Origin: Myxococcota bacterium
GTDB lineage: Bacteria > Myxococcota_A > UBA9160 > UBA6930
DNA: 64,000 nt
NCBI GenBank assembly: GCA_965223415.1
Contig: OZ245002.1
Location: 2,432,001-2,496,000, forward strand
Direction of reading: 5' to 3'
Shown: positions 32,759 to 57,457 of the stretch, in pieces
Numbering within the stretch: the first letter of the stretch is position 1
How the letters are laid out: the number at the start of each line of letters is the position of its first letter
Notes under the pieces: generated by a model
What the model was told of the DNA's origin: nothing
Databases searched by the model: none
The model's input: the letters and a program-made list of their open reading frames with translations, nothing else
Program-made: the position numbers and the translations under genes

Positions 32759-32759
<1 letters not shown>
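31491..32759 (-). CDS. sufD: Fe-S assembly protein SufD
   Basis: EEWRYT, KPQLEIYADDVKCSHG and FYLRSRGI. Confidence 0.95.
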
Positions 32760-33508
<749 letters not shown>

Positions 33509-33513
33509 CGTCA

Positions 33514-34971
33514 CTAGCCCACGCTCCCTTCCAGCGAGATCCCGAGCAGCTTCTGGGCCTCGACGGCGAACTCCATCGGCAGCTCCCGCAGCACCTCCTT
33601 GCAGAAGCCGTTCACGATCATCGAGATCGCGTCCTCCTCCGAGATGCCCCGCTGGCGGCAGTAGAAGAGCTGATCCTCGCCGATCTTCGAGGTGGTGGCC
33701 TCGTGCTCGAGCGTGGACGAGGCGTTCTTCACCTCGAGGTAGGGGAAGGTGTGGGCGCCGCACTGGTCGCCGAGCAGGAGCGAATCGCACTGGCTGTAGT
33801 TGCGGGCGCCGTGTGCCTTCGGGCCGATCCGCACGAGCCCGCGGTAGCTCTGCTGGCCGCGGCCGGCGGAGATGCCCTTCGAGATGATCGTGCTCTTCGT
33901 GTTCTTGCCGATGTGGATCATCTTCGTGCCGGTGTCGGCCTGCTGGAGGTTGTTCGTGAGCGCGACCGAGTAGAACTCGCCCACCGAGTCGTCGCCCTGG
34001 AGCAGGCAGCTCGGGTACTTCCAGGTGATCGCGGAGCCGGTCTCGACCTGGGTCCAGGAGATCTTCGAGCGCTTGCCCCGGCAGGCGCCGCGCTTGGTCA
34101 CGAAATTGTAGATGCCGCCCACGCCGTTCTTGTCGCCCGGGTACCAGTTCTGGACGGTGGAGTACTTGATCTCGGCGTCGTCGAGGGCGACGAGCTCCAC
34201 CACCGCGGCGTGCAGCTGGTTCTCGTCCCGCATCGGCGCCGTGCAACCCTCGAGGTAGGACACGTAGGAGCCCTCCTCGGCGACGATCAGGGTGCGCTCG
34301 AACTGGCCGGTCTCCTGGGCGTTGATGCGGAAGTAGGTCGAGAGCTCCATCGGGCAGCGCACGCCCTTCGGGATGTAGGCGAAGGAGCCGTCGCTGAAGA
34401 CGGCGGAGTTGAGCGCCGCGAAGAAGTTGTCGGAGTAGGGCACGACCGAGCCCAGGTACTTGCGAACGAGATCCGGGTGCTCCTTCACCGCGTCGGAGAA
34501 GGGGCCGAAGATGATGCCCTGCTTCCCCAGCTCTTCCTTGTAGGTGGTGGCGACGGAGACGCTGTCGAAGACCGCGTCCACCGCGACGCCCGCCAAGCGC
34601 TTCTGCTCCTCGAGCGGGATGCCGAGCTTGTCGTAGGTCTCGAGCAGCTCCGGGTCGACCTCGTCGAGGCTCTCGAGCTGCTTCTTCGGCTTCGGCGCCG
34701 CGTAGTAGTACATGTCCTGGTAGTCGATCTCCGGGTAGGAGACCTTCGCCCAGTCCGGGCGGTGGCCAAGGTCGAGCAGCTGCTGGAAGCGCTTCAGGGC
34801 CTTGAGTCGCCACTCGAGCAGCCACTCGGGCTCGTCCTTCTTGGCCGAGATGATGCGGACGATCTCCTCGGAGAGACCCTTCGGGATCCGCTCCTCTTCG
34901 ATGTCCGTGACGAAGCCGTACTCGTACTCGCGGTCGGCGAGCTGCTCGAGGGCGTCCTGTGATTCCGACAT
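33514..34971 (-). CDS. sufB: Fe-S assembly protein SufB
   Basis: [23 protein letters not shown] and [10 protein letters not shown]. Confidence 0.96.
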
Positions 34972-34986
34972 GGGAATGGGTGGGTC

Positions 34987-35430
34987 CTAGGCGATGGCGA
35001 GGGTGGTGGGCTTCTGGCGGGGCGGAAGGTCGGCGGCCAGCTCGGCGAGGCTCACCCGGGTGAGCGTGCTCTGGATCGCCCGGTTGATCCGCAGCCACGG
35101 CGTCGAGAGGCCGCACTGGGATTCCTGGTCGCAGTGGCCGGGCCCGGCGGCGCACTCCATGAGGGCGATCGGCCCCTCGAGGGCCTCGATCACCTCGGCC
35201 ACGCTCACCGCCTCGGGCTGCCGGGCGAGCTGGTACCCGCCGCGCGACCCCCGCTGGGAATCGAGCAGGCTCGCGCTGGCCAGGGACTTCAGCATCTTGC
35301 TCACCGCCGGCAGTGGCAGCCCCGTGGCCTCCGCCATCTCCCGCGCCGTGAGCGTGGTGCCGTCCGCCTCCCGCGCGAAGTGCACGAGCAGCACGATCCC
35401 GTAGTCGGTGAGCTTGCTGATCCTGAGCAT
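34987..35430 (-). CDS. Rrf2-family SUF regulator
   Basis: MLRISKLTDYG, SQRGSRGGY, and three Cys in ALMEC..C....C. Confidence 0.92.
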   Translation of the reverse strand: MLRISKLTDYGIVLLVHFAREADGTTLTAREMAEATGLPLPAVSKMLKSLASASLLDSQRGSRGGYQLARQPEAVSVAEVIEALEGPIALMECAAGPGHCDQESQCGLSTPWLRINRAIQSTLTRVSLAELAADLPPRQKPTTLAIA

Positions 35431-35444
35431 GGAGGCCGCCGAAG

Positions 35445-35487
35445 ATATCGGACCAATTCAGTCCCGTAAATATCGGACCAACTCAGT
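35445..35487. promoter_or_regulatory. Tandem candidate Rrf2 operator overlapping the suf -10 box
   Basis: ATATCGGACCAATTCAGT (35445-35462) and ATATCGGACCAACTCAGT (35470-35487), 25-bp period; first copy is dyad GGAC-N7-GTCC. Confidence 0.7.
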
Positions 35488-35560: not shown

Positions 35561-37621
35561 CTACATGTAGCCGAGGGCCTCGAGCTGGCGGCGGGTCTCG
35601 GCGTCGAGGGCGTCGGGGGCCGTGGGGTTGGCGTGGCCAGGCCCTGGGGAGGGAGTCGGGCCCGGGTGCCGCTCGAGCCAGGCGTCGAGCTCGCGACGCA
35701 GGGCGGCGGCGCGCTCCGGGTCGTCGCCGCTGCGGTCGTGGGCCTCGTCCGGGTCGGCGCGCAGATCGTAGAGGGCGGACGCCCCCCGGCGGACGACCAG
35801 CTTGTGGTCGCCGCGTCGCACGGCCCAGACCGGCGTGTCGAAGTCTCGGGGCCGCATGCCGCCGCCCGGGTCGATGCGGCTCAGCATCGAGAAGTCCGGG
35901 TAGACCTCGGCGAAGGTGGCCTCCCGCGCACGGCGCCGATCCGGCAGCAGGCTCCGGGAGGGACCGTCGCCGGGCTCGAGGCCGGCCCAATCGAGAAGAG
36001 TCGCGTGCAGGTCGAGGGTCTGGTGCGCCCCTGCCACCCGCGACCCGGCCTCGAACACACCGGGTGCCCGCACCAGGAACGGCACCCGGATCAGCGCATC
36101 GTTCAGGTCGAACTGGTGCCCCCAGCGCTCCGCCTCGCCCAGGTTGTCGCCGTGATCCGAGGTGACCACGAGCAGCACGTCGTCGAGGGCGACCCGCCGG
36201 CGGATCACCTCGAGGATGCGCCCCACCCGGCGGTCCTGATACCGCACACCGCTCCGATACAGCCCGCGCGTCGCCTCCACCCGCCACGGCTCCCGCGGCG
36301 GGTTCGAGTGCCAACGCACCGGATGGAAGCGGCGGATCGCGCGGATGCCCCGCAGCCATCCTCCCCAACCCTCCTCGGCGCGATCCCGCAGCGGTGCGAG
36401 GTAGGGGTTGTGCGCTTCGAACAGGTTCACGAACAGGAAGAAGGGGCGCTCCGGGTCCAGCCCGGCCATCCAGCTCGCGACCGCGGTCTCCGCCTCGGCC
36501 GCGCCCTGGTCGATCCACTGCTCCCAGCCGATCCCCGTGTAGCGCATCAGCCGCGACAGGATCAGCTTGTCCCGGCGCAGGTGGTTCACCTCCTCGAAGT
36601 GCTCGAAGCCCTGCACGATGTCGGTGACCCGCAGCCAGCTGTTCGAGGACACGACGGCGGTCTGGTAGCCCGCGGCTGCGAGACGCTCGGCGGTCGTCTC
36701 GAAGCCCGGCTCGAGGCGGCGCGCAGTTCCGTGCCGCACGCCGTGGGTTCGCGGATAGAGCCCGGTGAACATCGAAGCGTGCGACGGGGCGGTCCAGGGC
36801 GACGGGCTCACCATCTCCTCGAAGACCGCACCTTCCCCCGCCAGCGCGTCGAGCACCGGCGTCGTCCCCGGTGCGGCGCCGTAGGCACCCAGTGCGCCGG
36901 TGCGCGTGGTGTCGAGGAGCAGCACGACCACCGAGCCCGGCGCCGGATGCGGACTCGAGGGGGGCGGGGCCGCCGGCGCCGGCCAGGTCGCGAGCAGGGC
37001 CAGCACCAGGCCGATCAGCCCGTCCGGGGGCGCGTGGCCGGGGCGCCAACGGAGCAGGGCGGCGAGGAGCCCGAGGCCGACGGCCAGGATGGCGAAGGCC
37101 GGGCCGAAGTGGTCGTCACGCAGCCCGTGGGTGCCGGCGAGGAGCAGGCACGCCAGCACGCCGGCCCAGAGCCACGCCCCCGTCCGCGCCAGGGGCAGCG
37201 CCGCGAGCCGCCGCGGCCGCAGCTGGCGCGCGGCGGCGGCGACGATCACGAACACCAGCGGCGGTGCGACGACGCCCAGCCCGGTGACGGCGCCCAGGTA
37301 GCGGAGGTGCAGCGCCCCGCCCAGGAAGAACAGCACCCCAGCGGACAGGGTCGCCGCACACAGGGCGCTCGCCGCGGCGACGAGCCCCGTGCTCGTCGGC
37401 CGCGGGAGCACGTCCGTCCGCAGCCAGAGGAGACCGAGCACACCGCCGAGGAGGGCGCCGGCGAGGCCCATCAGCGCGACGGCCGCGATCGCCTCGTCCG
37501 GCGCCGGCGCGAAGCGCACGTGCGCCACGTCCGCGAGCTCGGCGAGTGCGAGCCCGAAGGCGCCGGCGCCGGCCGCGCCGATCGCCGCGTCTCGCGGATC
37601 GTCCTGGGTTCGCTCGCTCAC
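35561..37621 (-). CDS. Membrane-anchored sulfatase/alkaline-phosphatase-superfamily hydrolase or transferase
   Basis: Multi-TM N-terminus; LLDTTR, PWTAPSHASMFTG (Thr at the nucleophile position), HNPY, TSDHG and LYDLRADPDE. Confidence 0.85.
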   Translation of the reverse strand: MSERTQDDPRDAAIGAAGAGAFGLALAELADVAHVRFAPAPDEAIAAVALMGLAGALLGGVLGLLWLRTDVLPRPTSTGLVAAASALCAATLSAGVLFFLGGALHLRYLGAVTGLGVVAPPLVFVIVAAAARQLRPRRLAALPLARTGAWLWAGVLACLLLAGTHGLRDDHFGPAFAILAVGLGLLAALLRWRPGHAPPDGLIGLVLALLATWPAPAAPPPSSPHPAPGSVVVLLLDTTRTGALGAYGAAPGTTPVLDALAGEGAVFEEMVSPSPWTAPSHASMFTGLYPRTHGVRHGTARRLEPGFETTAERLAAAGYQTAVVSSNSWLRVTDIVQGFEHFEEVNHLRRDKLILSRLMRYTGIGWEQWIDQGAAEAETAVASWMAGLDPERPFFLFVNLFEAHNPYLAPLRDRAEEGWGGWLRGIRAIRRFHPVRWHSNPPREPWRVEATRGLYRSGVRYQDRRVGRILEVIRRRVALDDVLLVVTSDHGDNLGEAERWGHQFDLNDALIRVPFLVRAPGVFEAGSRVAGAHQTLDLHATLLDWAGLEPGDGPSRSLLPDRRRAREATFAEVYPDFSMLSRIDPGGGMRPRDFDTPVWAVRRGDHKLVVRRGASALYDLRADPDEAHDRSGDDPERAAALRRELDAWLERHPGPTPSPGPGHANPTAPDALDAETRRQLEALGYM

Positions 37622-38862
37622 GGCATCTCGATATCGGTGAAACGAGCCAGCGGCCACAGCGCGCCCTGCCCGTCGTGGTGCCAGCCCAGGGGCGGCGCCT
37701 GCATGCGGCCCAGGGGGGCGATGCGGGAAGGCGCCAGGGCGACGAGGGCCTCGACGAGCGCCGGCCCCTCGTCGGGGCCCGCCCCAAGCCCGACCGCCGC
37801 CAGGCGCGGCGCCAGGGGCCGGAGGGAGGCCACGAGCTTCACCGCGTCGCGCACCGGGTGCACGCGCAGGAAGCGGTGAAGGGGTGCGGGGCGGTGCTCC
37901 GCGTCGGCCTCGAGCACCAGGGCCCATCCCTCGCCTTCGCGGACGCGAACCTCACCGGCTGCGGCGGCCCGCAGCTCCGCGCCCTCCCATTCCTGGGAGA
38001 GATCGGCGGCGGCCCCGGGCGAGATCGCGCCCCGCGGCAGGCGGCCCGCGACCTCGGCGAAGGCCCGCGCGAGCTCGGCCTCTACCGCGTCGGGGATCCG
38101 CCCGTCCGGCGTCAGCACGAAGGCCGCGATCGGAGACAGGCAGCCGAGCTGGTCCCAGAGCGCGACGTCGAGGGCGAGCGCGTCGGCCGCGCGGGCCGTG
38201 TTCGCACCGGCACCGATCACGGCGACCGAGCAGCGGTGGCCGAAGCGCACGAAGCGCGTCGGTGCGGCGACCCGGAGGCCGATCTCGTCGAGGGCCGCGT
38301 CGGAGCCCGTGGCCGCGACGCACCCGGCCTCGAGGAAGGCGCTCCAGGCCTCCTCGTCGTTGCGGGGGAAGTCGGCGACGGCGAGGCACGCGCCCAGCTC
38401 CTCGTCGATCCCCGCCAGGGCTTCCCGGATGCAGGGCGCCGTCACCGGATCGTGTCGCCCGCTGCGGGCCAGCACCGGGGACTGCAGCGCGAGCGGTGCG
38501 ACCAGGGAGAGCACGCTCGGCATCGGCAGTGCGCCTCCGAGCACCACGGCGGTGGACCCGAAGCCCGTGGCGCGAACGGCGCCGCGCCCCGGAACCTCGT
38601 CCGCAACGAGCGAACGCAGCGCGTCCCCGCTCCAGGCGCCGAAGGCCAGCTCCAGGCCGGCCCGGGTGGTGGCCGGATGGAACCCGGTGGCGCCGGGCAG
38701 CCGCTCGCACAGCTCCTTGCGCAGCGGGGAGTCCGGGAGGGCCAGCTCGTCGATCAGCATCCCGAGCGGCTCGAGCACTCCCTCGCGGGGCCGCGCGGAG
38801 AGGCGCCCGCCGGCGTCGCGCAGCCTGCTCCAGGTGGCGCGCAGCTCAGTCGCCCGCGGCAC
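37618..38862 (-). CDS. LuxC-like acyl-CoA/acyl-protein reductase
   Basis: ALDH-like fold: VAATGSDAA, RFGHRCS, DVALWDQLGCLSP (catalytic Cys), LGRMQAPPLGWHHDG. Confidence 0.85.
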   Translation of the reverse strand: MPRATELRATWSRLRDAGGRLSARPREGVLEPLGMLIDELALPDSPLRKELCERLPGATGFHPATTRAGLELAFGAWSGDALRSLVADEVPGRGAVRATGFGSTAVVLGGALPMPSVLSLVAPLALQSPVLARSGRHDPVTAPCIREALAGIDEELGACLAVADFPRNDEEAWSAFLEAGCVAATGSDAALDEIGLRVAAPTRFVRFGHRCSVAVIGAGANTARAADALALDVALWDQLGCLSPIAAFVLTPDGRIPDAVEAELARAFAEVAGRLPRGAISPGAAADLSQEWEGAELRAAAAGEVRVREGEGWALVLEADAEHRPAPLHRFLRVHPVRDAVKLVASLRPLAPRLAAVGLGAGPDEGPALVEALVALAPSRIAPLGRMQAPPLGWHHDGQGALWPLARFTDIEMP

Positions 38863-39939
38863 CGAGCATCTCGTCCGCTGCGATGGAGCAGCCCCGCGCC
38901 TCGGCGCCCTCGGCGCGCCCGAGCACCTCGAAGCCGGCGCCCCGCGCCACCCCGAGGTCGGCGGTCTGGATCGCCAGGATGCTGCCCGTGTTCGCCAGAT
39001 CGACGATGCGGATGCGCCGACCTGGCCCGGCGGCAGCGCGGCGCCGCTCTCCGGATCGACGATCTGCACCCGCACCCAGGGCGGCACGCGCTTGCGGCGC
39101 GGCTCTTCGGGCCTCGCCAGCACCGTGTCGTAGAACTGGCTGGCGAGTTCGGTCATTCCGTACTGGTTGACGATCCGCTCGGAGGGGATGCCCAGGCGTG
39201 CCGCGATCCAGGCGTGGAGCGCGTCGCGATCCATGGCGCGGGCGCGTCCCTTGAAGCCGCCGGTCTCCATCACTCGTGTCCCCGCCGGCAGCTCGAGGAG
39301 GTGGCCGCGGGACTCCATCGCTTCGAGCAGGTGCACGAAGGCGAAGGCGGTGCCGCACAGGGCGACGGGGGCCGCCTCCTCCTCGCAAGCCGCGAGTGCG
39401 GACAGCAGCGCGTCGAGCTGCAGCTCGCCCTCGTGGACGAAGAACCCGCTGTCCGCGTCGCCGCGCCGATCCCGCATCACGCCGAACATATGGGAGAGGG
39501 ACGAGTCCGGCGCCTCCTCCGGCGAAGGCGCCAGCACGAGCATGCGCACGGCCGTATCCACGGGCAGGTCGGGGAGCACGCCCCGCTCGAAGCTCGGCAC
39601 GAGCGACGCCTCGTAGAGATCGAGCCGCTCCAGGTGGAGCTCGCCCCGCCGGGCGGTGGCGGTGCCGCTGGTGCGAAAGACCTTCCGGGTGCGCGTTTCC
39701 GGGAAGCAGGCCAGGCGCAGCTCCTTGAAGGCGCCGGTCGGCACCGCGGGGATCTCCGTCCAGTGCCGGACGGTCTCGGGCGTCCGCGTGCGTCCCTCGC
39801 AGAAGCGGCGATAGGGCTCGCAGCTCCGGAACTGGCGGGCGAAGAGCATCAGTGCCAGACGGGCGAAGCGGTCGTCGTCGCGCTCGCCGGGCGCCTCACG
39901 CATCCACGCCAGCAGCTCCTCTTCGGCCCGGCAGCTCAT
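38846..39939 (-). pseudogene. LuxE-like acyl-protein synthetase, frameshifted near 39015 as sequenced
   Basis: FRTSGT, METGGFKGR and NQYGMTELASQ in one frame; IVDLANTGS.AIQTADLG, GRAEGAEARGCS in the next frame. Confidence 0.85.
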
Positions 39940-41210
39940 GCCAGGAGCTCGACCAGAGCGTCGAGGCCCGCGGTCAGTGCCGCGCGGCCGATCGTGAGGG
40001 GCGGGGTGATCGAGAGCACTTCGCCGCGATCGCCGGAGGGCAGCAGGATGAACCCTCGCTCCAGCGCTTCGGCGCACACCTTCGCCGCCCGCGCCGGCTC
40101 GCTGCACTCGACGCCGATCATCAGGCCGAGACCGCGGCACTCGTGCACCGCGGGGAGCCCGGCGCAGCCGGCCCGCAGGCGGGCGAGGGCGAAGGCGCCG
40201 AGCTCGGCGGAGCGCTCGGCCAGCTTCTCCTCCTCGAGCACGGCGATCGAGGCCAGCGCCGCGGCGCATCCCGGAGGATGCCCCAGGAAGGTCTGGGTGT
40301 GGAGCGCCTCACCGCGGGAGACGGGCCAGTGGTCCATCACCTCCGCTCGCCCGACGCAGGCGGAGATCGGCATGCCGGAAGCCAGGCCCTTGGCCACGCA
40401 CAGCAGGTCCGGCACCACCCCCTCGTGGTCGCAGGCGAAGGTCCGCCCGGTGCGGCCGAAGCCGGTGTAGACCTCGTCGGCGATCAGGAGCCAGCCGCGC
40501 TCGTCGCAGAGCCGGCGCAGCCCGGCGAGGAAGCCGGCGGGCGGCACGCGCTCGCCGCCGCGTCCCTGGACCGGCTCCACCAGCACGGCGCCGACCTCGT
40601 GCTCGGCGGCGTCGGCGCAGCGCAGGGCGTCCGCGGCGTCGCCGTAGCGGGCGAAGGCGACGCGCCCGGGCAGGAGCGGCGCGAAGGGCTGGCGGAAGTC
40701 CTCGCGCCAGGTGGCGTCGAGGGAGCCCAGGGCGAGGCCGTGGTAGCCGCCTCGGAAGGCCACCACGCCGGGCCGGCCGGTGGCGAGCAGCGCGGTCTCG
40801 AGGGCGATCTCCACCACGTCCGAGCCGGACGTGCCGAGCACCGCCTTGGCGGGGCCGCCGCCGGGAAAGCGCGCGGCGAGGGCTTCCAGGAGCTCGACCT
40901 TCACCGCGGCCGGCTGGACGTCGCCCATGGCGTGCATCAGCTGCTCGGCCTGGCCGGCCACGGCACTCGCCACGCGCGGATGGGCGTGGCCGGCGTTCGC
41001 GACGCCGAAGCCGCCGCCGAGATCGACGAAGCGGTTTCCGTCCACGTCCCAGACGCTCGCCCCCCGGGCCCGCTCCCAGAAGATCGGCGCGCTGGGCTCG
41101 AGACAGGTCACGTTGCGGCTCTCGACCCGCGCCAGGCGCTCCGCCAGGGCCCGGGAGCGCGGCCCGGGAACCTCCGTGCGCAGGGCCGGCAGCGGGGTCT
41201 CGTCCAGCAT
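39936..41210 (-). CDS. Class III PLP aminotransferase (GABA-T/ornithine-AT-like)
   Basis: WDVDGNRFVD, GGYHG, EPVQGRGG, LIADEVYTGFGRTG and AKGL. Confidence 0.92.
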   Translation of the reverse strand: MLDETPLPALRTEVPGPRSRALAERLARVESRNVTCLEPSAPIFWERARGASVWDVDGNRFVDLGGGFGVANAGHAHPRVASAVAGQAEQLMHAMGDVQPAAVKVELLEALAARFPGGGPAKAVLGTSGSDVVEIALETALLATGRPGVVAFRGGYHGLALGSLDATWREDFRQPFAPLLPGRVAFARYGDAADALRCADAAEHEVGAVLVEPVQGRGGERVPPAGFLAGLRRLCDERGWLLIADEVYTGFGRTGRTFACDHEGVVPDLLCVAKGLASGMPISACVGRAEVMDHWPVSRGEALHTQTFLGHPPGCAAALASIAVLEEEKLAERSAELGAFALARLRAGCAGLPAVHECRGLGLMIGVECSEPARAAKVCAEALERGFILLPSGDRGEVLSITPPLTIGRAALTAGLDALVELLA

Positions 41211-41233
41211 GGGCGGATACTCTAGGAGCCCTC

Positions 41234-41749
41234 GTGGCGCGCGTCTTCATCGGCATGGGTTCGAACCTCGGCGATCGGGAGGCCCGGCTCGCCCAGGCCC
41301 TGGTGGCGCTTCGCGGCCTTCCCGAGACCACGGTCGCGGCCGTCTCGTCGCTCTACGAGACGGCCCCGGTGGGCGGGCCGCCCCAGGGCCCCTATCTGAA
41401 TGCCGTCGCGGAGCTCGAGTGCGCGCTGGCTCCCCTCGCGCTGCTCGAGGCGCTGCTGGCCATCGAGGCGGCGGCGGGGCGGGTGCGGGACGGGGAGCGG
41501 GACGGCCCCCGCACCCTGGACCTGGACCTGCTCCTGGTCGACGCACGGGTGATCGAGAGCGAGGTGCTGACGGTTCCCCATCCGCGTCTCCATCTCCGTG
41601 CCTTCGTGCTCGAGCCCCTGGCCGAGCTGGCGCCGGACCTCCTGCACCCGCGCCTCGGCGCTACCCTGGGAGAGCTGGCGCGGCGCGTGCGCGATTCCGA
41701 CGCGGTCCGCGCGATCCATGGGGGAGCGGCATGGCCATCGTCGCGGTGA
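41234..41749 (+). CDS. folK: 2-amino-4-hydroxy-6-hydroxymethyldihydropteridine diphosphokinase
   Basis: GMGSNLGDR, YLNAV, GPRTLDLDLL and PHPR..RAFVL.PL. Confidence 0.95.
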   Translation: MARVFIGMGSNLGDREARLAQALVALRGLPETTVAAVSSLYETAPVGGPPQGPYLNAVAELECALAPLALLEALLAIEAAAGRVRDGERDGPRTLDLDLLLVDARVIESEVLTVPHPRLHLRAFVLEPLAELAPDLLHPRLGATLGELARRVRDSDAVRAIHGGAAWPSSR

Positions 41750-42033
41750 GCATCGCGCCCACGGGCGAGGGCACGAGCGTCGGCGCCCACGTCGCCGAAG
41801 CCCTGGGCGTCCTCGAGGCGCAAGACGAAGTGAAGTGGGAGCTCGGTCCCATGTTCACCACCCTCGAAGGCGACCTCGACGCGATCCTCGCCCTCGTCCG
41901 TCGGATGCAGGAAGCCGTCTTCGCCCGCGGTGCCGTTCGCGTGGGCACCGTCCTCAAGATCGACGACCGCCGCGACAAGCCCGCCACCATGCAATCCAAG
42001 CTGGACTCGGCGCAACAGCGGGGACGTTCCTGA
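41731..42033 (+). CDS. MTH1187/thiamine-binding family protein
   Basis: SIAP.G..TSV, GPMFTTLEG and LKIDDRRDK. Confidence 0.88.
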   Translation: MAIVAVSIAPTGEGTSVGAHVAEALGVLEAQDEVKWELGPMFTTLEGDLDAILALVRRMQEAVFARGAVRVGTVLKIDDRRDKPATMQSKLDSAQQRGRS

Positions 42034-56161: not shown

Positions 56162-57457
56162 ATGAGCCGCGAACGCATCGTCGCACTCGACAAGGCACGG
56201 GTGTGGCACCCCTACACGCCGATGGACCGCTATCGGACGGAGGTCGACCCGATCGTGGTGGATCGGGCGGAGGGGCCCTGGCTCTGGGACGTGGACGGGA
56301 GCCGGCTGATCGACGCGAACTCGTCCTGGTGGGTGGCGTCCCTCGGCCACAACCACCCGCGGCTCGTGGCGGCTCTGAAGGCCCAGGCGGATCGGAACTG
56401 TCACTCGGCCCTGGCGGGCATGACCCACGAGCCCGCGGCCGAGCTGGCGGAGCGCCTGTGCGCCGTGGCGCCGAACGGGCTCGAGCACGTCTTCTACAGC
56501 GACGACGGCTCCACGGCGGTCGAGGTCGGCCTGAAGGTGGCGCTCCAGTACTGGGCCCAGAACGGGAGCCCCGAGCGGAAGCACTTCGTGGCGCTGCAGG
56601 GCGCCTTCCACGGCGAGACGCTGGGGGTCACCTCGATCGGTGGCGTCGAGGTGTTCCGGGCGCCCTTCCAGGGCGCGGTGCTCCAGAACTTCTTCGTGCC
56701 GACGCCTAGCCAGGCCGGCGGTCTCGAACCGGCCGTGAACGCCCTGCGCGGCGTGCTCGACGCCCACGGCCACGAGATCGCGGCGATGGTGGTGGAGCCC
56801 GTGGTGCAGGGCGCCTCCGGCATGCAGATGTACGACCCGGCCTACCTGCGCGAGGCGCGGGCGCTGTGCGATCGCCACGAGGTCTTCCTGGTCGCCGACG
56901 AGGTGTTCACCGGCTACGGGCGCACTGGTCCGATGTGGGCCGTCGAGCACGCTGGCGTCCTCCCGGACGTGCTGTGCACCGCCAAGGGATTCAGCGGCGG
57001 CATGCTGCCCATGGCCGCCACCCTGGTAACGCCGCGGCTCTTCGACGGCTTCCTGGGCGAGGCCGATCGGGCCTTCTACTACGGCCATTCCTTCTGCGGC
57101 AACCCGCTGGGCTCGGCCGTGGCCCTCGAGGTGCTGAGCGTCTACGAAGAAGAGCGCATCCTCGAGCGGGCCAAGCCCAAGGCCGAGCGCATCGCCCAGG
57201 CATTCGCGGAGATGGAGGCGCTTCCCAGCGTCGCGCGAACCCGCTGCCGCGGCATGATCGGCGTGCTGGATCTCGGCGGAGACGAGGGCTACCTGGCCCG
57301 GGCGGGCTGGCGGGTCTACGACGAGGCGCGACAGCGGGGCGCCTACCTGCGTCCGATGGGCAACTGCGTCTACGTGGCGCCGCCGCTGAATATCCCGGAC
57401 GCCGTGCTGGACGAGCTCCTCGGCATCGTGCGGTCCTCGGTCGAGGCGGTCTCGTGA
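56162..57457 (+). CDS. bioA: Adenosylmethionine-8-amino-7-oxononanoate transaminase
   Basis: VWHPYT, SSWW, GSTAVEVGLK, FHGET, ADEVFTG.GRTG and LRPMGN. Confidence 0.92.
   Translation: MSRERIVALDKARVWHPYTPMDRYRTEVDPIVVDRAEGPWLWDVDGSRLIDANSSWWVASLGHNHPRLVAALKAQADRNCHSALAGMTHEPAAELAERLCAVAPNGLEHVFYSDDGSTAVEVGLKVALQYWAQNGSPERKHFVALQGAFHGETLGVTSIGGVEVFRAPFQGAVLQNFFVPTPSQAGGLEPAVNALRGVLDAHGHEIAAMVVEPVVQGASGMQMYDPAYLREARALCDRHEVFLVADEVFTGYGRTGPMWAVEHAGVLPDVLCTAKGFSGGMLPMAATLVTPRLFDGFLGEADRAFYYGHSFCGNPLGSAVALEVLSVYEEERILERAKPKAERIAQAFAEMEALPSVARTRCRGMIGVLDLGGDEGYLARAGWRVYDEARQRGAYLRPMGNCVYVAPPLNIPDAVLDELLGIVRSSVEAVS

Follow-up and report, generated by a model that had tools for sequence, protein, structure and literature searches.

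We analysed a 64,000-nucleotide stretch of contig OZ245002.1 from a Myxococcota bacterium (assembly GCA_965223415.1, positions 2,432,001 to 2,496,000; hereafter referred to as the window), and focused on three minus-strand genes encoding a class III aminotransferase, a LuxE-type acyl-protein synthetase and a LuxC-type acyl-thioester reductase (hereafter, the trio). On balance, and from comparison of sequences, we lean towards reading the trio as a QueC/QueF-independent, nitrile-free route from 7-carboxy-7-deazaguanine (CDG) to 7-aminomethyl-7-deazaguanine (preQ1), a precursor of queuosine (Q). It likewise seems somewhat probable that most Myxococcota (245 of the 301 genomes sampled), this organism included, make preQ1 by means of LuxE/LuxC and a class III aminotransferase, without a nitrile. 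In the proposed scheme, LuxE would adenylate CDG, the product of QueE, and load the thioester onto its own C-terminal cysteine; the acyl group would then move to the cysteine of LuxC, where reduction with NAD(P)H would give 7-formyl-7-deazaguanine; and the aminotransferase, probably using glutamate as donor, would turn this aldehyde into preQ1. Tgt would place preQ1 into tRNA for further processing by QueA, and the trio would replace both QueC (acid to nitrile) and QueF (nitrile to amine). The substrate, cofactors and direction given here are those that we infer for the trio. The step from CDG to preQ1 leads from an acid through an aldehyde to an amine, and thus fits the chemistry expected of LuxE/LuxC and an aminotransferase.

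Across the phylum, the trio is distributed in line with the queuosine pathway, with QueE and QueA kept and QueC and QueF complementary to LuxE. The same 301 Myxococcota genomes were searched for every queuosine and LuxE profile. QueA was found in 291 genomes and a QueE-like protein also in 291; none of the QueE-like matches rose above the Bacillus subtilis-type cut-off, and we take them as genuine because they adjoin QueC in QueC-bearing genomes (e.g., G056, G088, G104 and G136). Full-length QueC was detected in 55 genomes (E <= 8e-25), while the matches at E <= 0.001 in 170 other genomes were weak and mostly partial (E 2.9e-19 to ~1e-3) and are read as other PP-loop proteins. Classical QueF was present in 44 genomes, all inside the QueC set. 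LuxE (profile A1) occurred in 245 genomes, namely 238 of the 246 that lack QueC versus 7 of the 55 that carry it. Cross-tabulation of the 301 genomes gave 243 with LuxE and no QueF, 42 with QueF and no LuxE, two with both and 14 with neither, and LuxE and QueF together cover 287 genomes. The two genomes with both (G177 and G314) have weak LuxE matches (E 2.9e-27 and 7e-22). Within the organism's own order (48 genomes), LuxE and QueE were found in all 48 and QueA in 45, with no QueF and no full-length QueC. One trio-bearing genome of this order (G175) contains a QueC-like open reading frame (ORF) of 196 aa (L164:2255-2845; 87 bits against a cut-off of 150) that lacks model positions 55-92, and this may be a decaying or repurposed QueC. 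At the family level, 19 of the 30 coded families listed have LuxE without QueF and six have QueF without LuxE. Family f13 is mixed: nine of its ten genomes carry LuxE, and G161 lacks LuxE and LuxC and has adjacent QueC (228 bits) and QueF. Family f45 is split, with LuxE in G148 and QueC/QueF in G309.

We further examined the queuosine genes of this genome, which is 97% complete and consists of one contig. No match to QueC (PF06508) was found in the genome, and its sole match to QueF (PF14489), at 29 bits, is the GTP cyclohydrolase FolE. Two Tgt genes are present, one of them beside QueA, together with a 6-pyruvoyl-tetrahydropterin synthase (PTPS)/QueD-like protein and a radical S-adenosylmethionine (SAM) protein whose top NCBIfam matches are all QueE and whose N-terminal pattern reads QGEG...C-x3-C-x-W-C. 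A search for the transporter QueT gave no match. We also considered the trio as a substitute for ArgB/C/D, HemA/L, BioA or PanD and rejected this, since the genome has separate genes for ArgD, BioA, HemL and PanD and the trio is therefore not their replacement. In one related genome (G087), QueE (TIGR04349, 265 bits; L178:12412-13152) is encoded ~3 kb upstream of the trio and in the same direction, with an ORF of 219 aa without an assignment and a sodium/solute symporter of opposite orientation in between; this nearness, one case in 72 loci, could be due to chance.

The conserved functional unit comprises the aminotransferase, LuxE and LuxC only. Within the genus, family and order, a LuxC search matched 39 of 41 genomes, the two misses being 93% and 88% complete. 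The trio was contiguous on one strand in 29 of 32 same-order loci, where the orthologous aminotransferases adjoining LuxE are 61-80% identical; two of the remaining loci (L035 and L038) are cut by contig ends and one (L026) has LuxC alone. That last genome (G025; CP070734.1, one contig; L026 and L138) carries LuxC at ~2.894 Mb with Rrf2-sufB and a LuxE match covering residues 5-304 only at ~2.318 Mb, and its trio appears to be split or rearranged. Flanking genes were also shared within the order, with folK nearby in 25 and Rrf2-sufB in 26 of the 32 loci. Of 20 loci taken from the sister family and from Myxococcota further afield, 15 held the full trio, four held LuxE-LuxC without an adjoining aminotransferase and one was a 1.6-kb contig; among 20 further Myxococcota loci, the aminotransferase adjoined LuxE in nine. 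The trio is single-copy and near-universal, and a 1.8-Mb one-contig genome (G125) keeps it contiguous along with QueE and QueA. No conserved fourth partner gene was found: in distant lineages the trio is flanked by unrelated housekeeping genes (S15/PNPase, PrmA, RecR, metallophosphoesterases and hydrolases). The named relatives retrieved were all uncultured Myxococcota or 'Deltaproteobacteria' metagenome-assembled genomes, and the 80 related loci kept are all from uncultured Myxococcota.

Several observations weigh against a role in preQ1 formation. The genomes are related, so that the cross-tabulation overstates their independence, and only two clean within-family switches were seen. LuxE and QueC occur together in 5 genomes (7 in the tally of the 55 QueC-bearing genomes above), and 13 genomes, mostly of family f33, combine LuxE with a weaker QueF-like protein. 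The aminotransferase is not beside LuxE in 4 of 19 distant and 11 of the 20 further loci. In this genome, the QueE and QueD candidates score below curated cut-offs, and the QueD-like protein appears to lack the cysteine before its LHGH motif. A transporter of the YhhQ/COG1738 family (166 bits) is also encoded, which makes salvage of preQ1 possible. No preQ1 riboswitch was found with Rfam in the window, where nothing matched at the gathering score, or in nine loci, and no que gene stands in the trio operon in any of 72 Myxococcota loci. The only Rfam match in the nine loci was a tRNA-Phe near the trio (L061 and L064), which was set aside, as tRNA-Phe does not carry Q. The weaker QueF-like class (56-70 bits, ORFs of ~200-270 aa; e.g., G296:C2:952635-952862) was seen in genomes that lack QueC, in every case alongside a divergent LuxE (E 1e-56 to 1e-109), and could be a different deazapurine enzyme.

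The same absence of que genes from the trio operons, together with the varied housekeeping flanks and the presence of a salvage transporter family, would also suit a trio that turns a polar carboxylate into a different small amine, such as an omega-amino acid or polyamine precursor formed via a semialdehyde, with the complementarity to QueC/QueF a by-product of shared ancestry. The resemblance of the aminotransferase to GABA/PuuE and acetylornithine/LysJ transaminases points the same way. We consider this possible but doubtful, as it leaves unexplained why 291 of the 301 genomes retain QueE and QueA with QueC/QueF missing almost exactly where LuxE is present, and why families f13 and f45 switch from within; moreover, ArgD, HemL, BioA and PanD already exist elsewhere in the genome. 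The CDG-to-preQ1 route stays the preferred reading.

We next compared LuxE and LuxC with characterised relatives. The only solved relatives of the pair are the two chains of the Photobacterium phosphoreum LuxC-LuxE complex (PDB 7XC6). The in-frame N-terminal part of LuxE matched PF04443 at 49.6 bits (cut-off 24.9) but the NCBIfam LuxE equivalog at only 54 bits (cut-off 550), and it is thus not an equivalog of the lux-operon LuxE. A profile of 17 orthologues (A1) aligned with 7XC6_E at E 9.2e-38 and the single LuxE sequence at E 7.6e-13. In these alignments the cysteine of RGCS falls on Cys364, the lysine of GGFKGR on Lys238 and the arginine of LGR on Arg355, all three invariant in the 17 sequences; in the available text of PMC9157457, Cys364 carries the acyl group and the roles of all three residues are described. 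LuxC matched PF05893 at 148 bits (cut-off 21) and 7XC6_A at E 7.8e-07, with the cysteine of DQLGC on the catalytic cysteine of DQQAC (Cys296) and HHDG on AHDG, which corresponds to His442/Asp443. A preliminary description of the window, made from its letters alone, had named RGCS and DQLGCLSP as catalytic, and this is borne out by the alignment of both cysteines with the thioester cysteines of 7XC6. An acid-to-aldehyde mechanism, of the kind treated also in the accessible part of PMC12041015, is therefore a well-supported prediction for this pair. Fusion of LuxE and LuxC in a single ORF was seen at loci L049 and L058 and in database proteins P0242 and P0243; a Rosetta-stone search for longer LuxC proteins returned LuxE-LuxC fusions only and no fusion to an aminotransferase. 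Searching the ESM Atlas retrieved generic LuxE clusters only, from several phyla.

The preliminary description had gone further and proposed that LuxE/LuxC reduce a long-chain fatty acid, that the aminotransferase makes a long-chain alkylamine or another amine of it, and that a fourth, membrane-anchored sulfatase-like enzyme uses or modifies the product in a lipid or envelope pathway. Precedents exist: the substrate of LuxE/LuxC in luminous bacteria is myristate (PMC9157457, as far as its available text goes), and the LuxC-like reductase TabE and transaminase TabA make an alkylamine in the biosynthesis of the tambjamine BE-18591, which is the closest published logic (available portion of bioRxiv 10.1101/2025.08.11.669332). 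In this genus the sulfatase-like gene also overlaps the luxC stop. A long-chain substrate is, however, not supported by the sequences. LuxC is ~414 aa long (orthologues 387-453 aa) and ends at a point aligned with chain residue 447 of 477 of 7XC6_A, before the P460-P488 element, the C-terminal oligomerisation element that, according to the accessible part of PMC9157457, closes a >40 A hydrophobic cleft for C14 (myristoyl) chains. The lack of this element counts for a non-fatty substrate. No acyl carrier protein (ACP), thioesterase, acyltransferase or lipid gene was conserved near the trio in the loci scanned, and its single-copy, near-universal presence even in the 1.8-Mb genome suits a housekeeping function over a specialised lipid. 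The sulfatase-like gene stands beside LuxC in only 3 of the 32 same-order and none of 40 more distant loci. We therefore judge the fatty-amine model improbable; its fatty and membrane parts have fared poorly, and its acid-to-aldehyde-to-amine chemistry remains the natural reading of LuxE and LuxC with both thioester cysteines, translationally coupled to a class III aminotransferase.

The aminotransferase itself is a class III enzyme of no named subfamily. Its nearest solved structures are GabT and PuuE (E ~1e-74), and it falls below every NCBIfam equivalog cut-off, including those of the best match PRK05769 (307.6 vs 552), GabT TIGR00700 (299.9 vs 506.65) and ArgD TIGR00707 (281.2 vs 410.05), with a moderate match of 250.7 bits to the NCBIfam model of the PigE aminotransferase domain. 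It is closest to GabT/PuuE and LysJ/ArgD types. The genome encodes 11 class III aminotransferases, among them its own ArgD (417 vs a cut-off of 410), BioA and HemL. The motifs DEV..GFGRTG and AKGL were seen directly in the translation; the AKGL motif in which the preliminary description had placed the pyridoxal phosphate (PLP) lysine is thus present, and its lysine is the putative PLP-binding residue. The GabT-like character of this enzyme, and the membership of LuxC in the aldehyde dehydrogenase (ALDH) superfamily (PMC12041015, in its available part), would fit a catabolic trio resembling GabT/GabD, in which transamination of an amine would yield an aldehyde for oxidation by LuxC to an acyl-enzyme, from which LuxE would free the acid. 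Such a role appears very improbable, given that known LuxE/LuxC run in the reductive, ATP-consuming direction, that single-copy conservation in reduced genomes and the queuosine pattern would be unexpected, and that no amine transporter or regulator is conserved near the trio.

The fourth gene of the run is a genus-level insertion into an older operon and not part of the conserved unit. Genes 63-73% identical to it follow LuxC in only three of the 32 same-order loci (G002, G003 and G004, all of the same genus), and another member of the genus (G005) lacks it, with Rrf2 directly after LuxC. The preliminary description had set beforehand that its model would be refuted if the aminotransferase and sulfatase-like genes were not conserved beside luxEC, and for the sulfatase-like gene, seen in just these three loci, this outcome was obtained. 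In other lineages the slot between LuxC and Rrf2 holds a B12-binding radical-SAM/DUF4070 gene (three loci), an amidohydrolase, a FecR-like gene or an enoyl-CoA hydratase. Three genomes from other families (L027:6353-7930, L037:6368-8176 and L031:6336-7985) carry the B12-binding radical-SAM/DUF4070 gene co-oriented with LuxC and immediately behind it. Sulfatase-like genes near LuxC in G038 and G025 (29-32% identity) were discounted as counterparts; the G038 copy is parted from LuxC by an oppositely oriented response regulator and so lies outside the operon. There are 24 PF00884 matches in the genome, where this copy has some 20 paralogues in all, itself included, and its full-length relatives are confined to close kin. 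Its product was described beforehand as a membrane enzyme of the Thr type within the sulfatase superfamily, and the hydrophobic segments, PF00884 domain and invariant Thr277 uphold this: ~6-7 hydrophobic segments in residues 12-219 precede DTTR at 237 and WTAPSH at 276, and D237, T238, T277, D489 and H490 do not vary among 18 members of the family, with His281 nearly invariant. True sulfatases carry a Cys/Ser-x-Pro-x-Arg motif for formylglycine formation, and this protein instead reads T-A-P-S-H, with Thr277 and His281 at the Cys and Arg positions. Like LtaS, EptA and OpgB types, which we take to be membrane-anchored members of the alkaline-phosphatase/sulfatase superfamily with a Thr nucleophile, it has several hydrophobic segments at the N terminus ahead of a PF00884 domain whose Thr is invariant. 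It differs from them in giving no significant NCBIfam match to those families (the best, partial choline-sulfatase, arylsulfatase and PehA, lie far below cut-off) and in a conserved C-terminal L-x-x-LGY motif of its own. Thr-type proteins of this family, in which the terminal L-x-x-LGY is invariant, occur as soluble, tetratricopeptide-repeat-added and multi-transmembrane forms in Planctomycetota, Acidobacteriota and Actinomycetota. The gene is probably co-transcribed with luxC, and is probably a lineage-specific passenger with a putative, unrelated phosphoester or sulfoester role.

As deposited, luxE is broken: its N-terminal 308 codons run on in the luxC frame, and the C-terminal 55 codons, with RGCS, lie in another. 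The frame changes near 39013-39015, where the window has 2 nt versus one codon in relatives, and both halves share one frame in all 48 related loci that hold them. Over 38400-39600, the contigs of sequencing runs X1, X2 and X4 show no substitutions and a single difference, a C inserted behind 39013, which restores the luxE frame; all three derive from a single sample, which may be the one that yielded the genome, and are hence not independent of the genome. Contigs of run X3 were short pieces only. As the frame is intact in the contigs of three runs, the break is most probably an assembly error in the deposited consensus. The 773-aa 'LuxE-LuxC' protein of the public gene call (P0241, from the contig; window 37618-40269, minus strand) is then probably an artefact of the one-base assembly gap. 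The hint that the operon needs frame repair, given in the preliminary description, is borne out by the read-derived contigs and all 48 relatives.

The features of the locus are listed in Table 1. Profile searches with Pfam recovered the domains expected for all four minus-strand ORFs (LuxE, LuxC, Aminotran_3 and Sulfatase), and sequence reading confirmed the overlapping junctions proposed for them: ATGA at 39936-39939 between the aminotransferase and luxE, a 17-nt overlap at 38846-38862 that starts with GTG and ends with TGA between luxE and luxC, and GTGA at 37618-37621, on the luxC stop, between luxC and the sulfatase-like gene. Upstream lies a divergent folK, and the flanking ORFs encode FolK, DUF2332, a SnoaL/LEH protein, 3'-phosphoadenosine 5'-phosphosulfate (PAPS) reductase, Rrf2 and SufB. 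The G+C content of the whole window is ~70%, with 73-77% in the four genes and folK (36000-42000) versus ~65-72% in the neighbouring suf genes. The window had been said to contain no luxA, luxB or luxD; this holds for the ORFs scanned at 32.7-45.2 kb, none of which matched, the rest of the window not having been profile-searched. Neither luxA/luxB luciferase nor luxD thioesterase genes were found among the scanned neighbours in 72 related loci. A second class III aminotransferase in the window, BioA at 56243-57430 on the plus strand (TIGR00508, 469 bits against a cut-off of 405), is unrelated to the trio.

Table 1. Coordinates of the genes and the sequence gap described here (positions in the window)
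Feature	Position	Strand	Remarks
Class III (GABA-AT-like) PLP aminotransferase	39936..41210	-	Aminotran_3 E 1.3e-96, 324 bits; first gene of the trio
LuxE-type carboxylate-adenylating acyl-protein synthetase	38846..39939	-	PF04443 49.6 bits; frame interrupted as deposited
LuxC-type acyl-thioester reductase, ALDH superfamily	37618..38862	-	PF05893 148 bits; third gene of the trio
Membrane-anchored Thr-type sulfatase-superfamily protein	35561..37621	-	PF00884 E 2.2e-35; co-oriented with luxC
Probable one-base assembly gap frameshifting luxE	39013..39014	.	Extra C in contigs of three runs; one additional base in relatives
Rrf2-family regulator, SufB and ABC ATPase-containing ORF (suf operon)	32759-35457	-	Directly downstream of the four-gene run

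We then set the trio beside known systems. With P. phosphoreum LuxC-LuxE (7XC6; PMC9157457, available text) it shares the two families, the LuxE cysteine, the Lys238 and Arg355 equivalents, the LuxC cysteine and tight coupling, sometimes fusion, of luxE and luxC. In contrast, the trio is very distant in sequence, lacks a luciferase context, is often joined to an aminotransferase and has a LuxC that ends before P460-P488, and its proposed substrate would be a deazapurine acid and not myristate. The canonical QueC (CDG to the nitrile preQ0) and QueF (nitrile to amine) route would have the same start, CDG, and the same end, preQ1, and its upstream QueE and downstream Tgt and QueA are all found in this genome; the trio enzymes, however, belong to unrelated families and would pass through an aldehyde and not a nitrile, with transamination in place of a four-electron nitrile reduction. 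TabE/TabA of tambjamine BE-18591, and TamH and PigE cited with them, likewise take a thioester to an aldehyde and then employ a class III/omega transaminase, but, in the accessible portion of the source, they act on ACP- or coenzyme A (CoA)-bound fatty or polyketide chains inside biosynthetic gene clusters, whereas the acid of the trio would be activated by a LuxE-type adenylating enzyme and the trio is single-copy among housekeeping genes across the phylum.

No description of the trio, or of a QueC/QueF-independent route to preQ1, was found in the open-access PubMed Central (PMC) and bioRxiv literature. According to a 2026 review (PMC13740343), preQ1 is made by way of QueC/QueF, and QueF has no counterpart in primary metabolism; in its available text, 7-formyl-7-deazaguanine appears only as a by-product that QueF mutants form by hydrolysis. 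If the trio does lead from CDG to preQ1, both QueC and QueF would have been replaced non-orthologously in a primary pathway regarded as completely worked out, and 7-formyl-7-deazaguanine would be a true metabolite. The trio would also offer biocatalysis a new means, dependent on ATP, NADPH and glutamate, of converting heteroaromatic acids to aminomethyl groups, and LuxE/LuxC enzymes would gain a non-lipid housekeeping role. Organisms taken for Q-precursor 'auxotrophs' by the absence of QueC/QueF, here 238 of the 246 QueC-less Myxococcota, would then be prototrophs.

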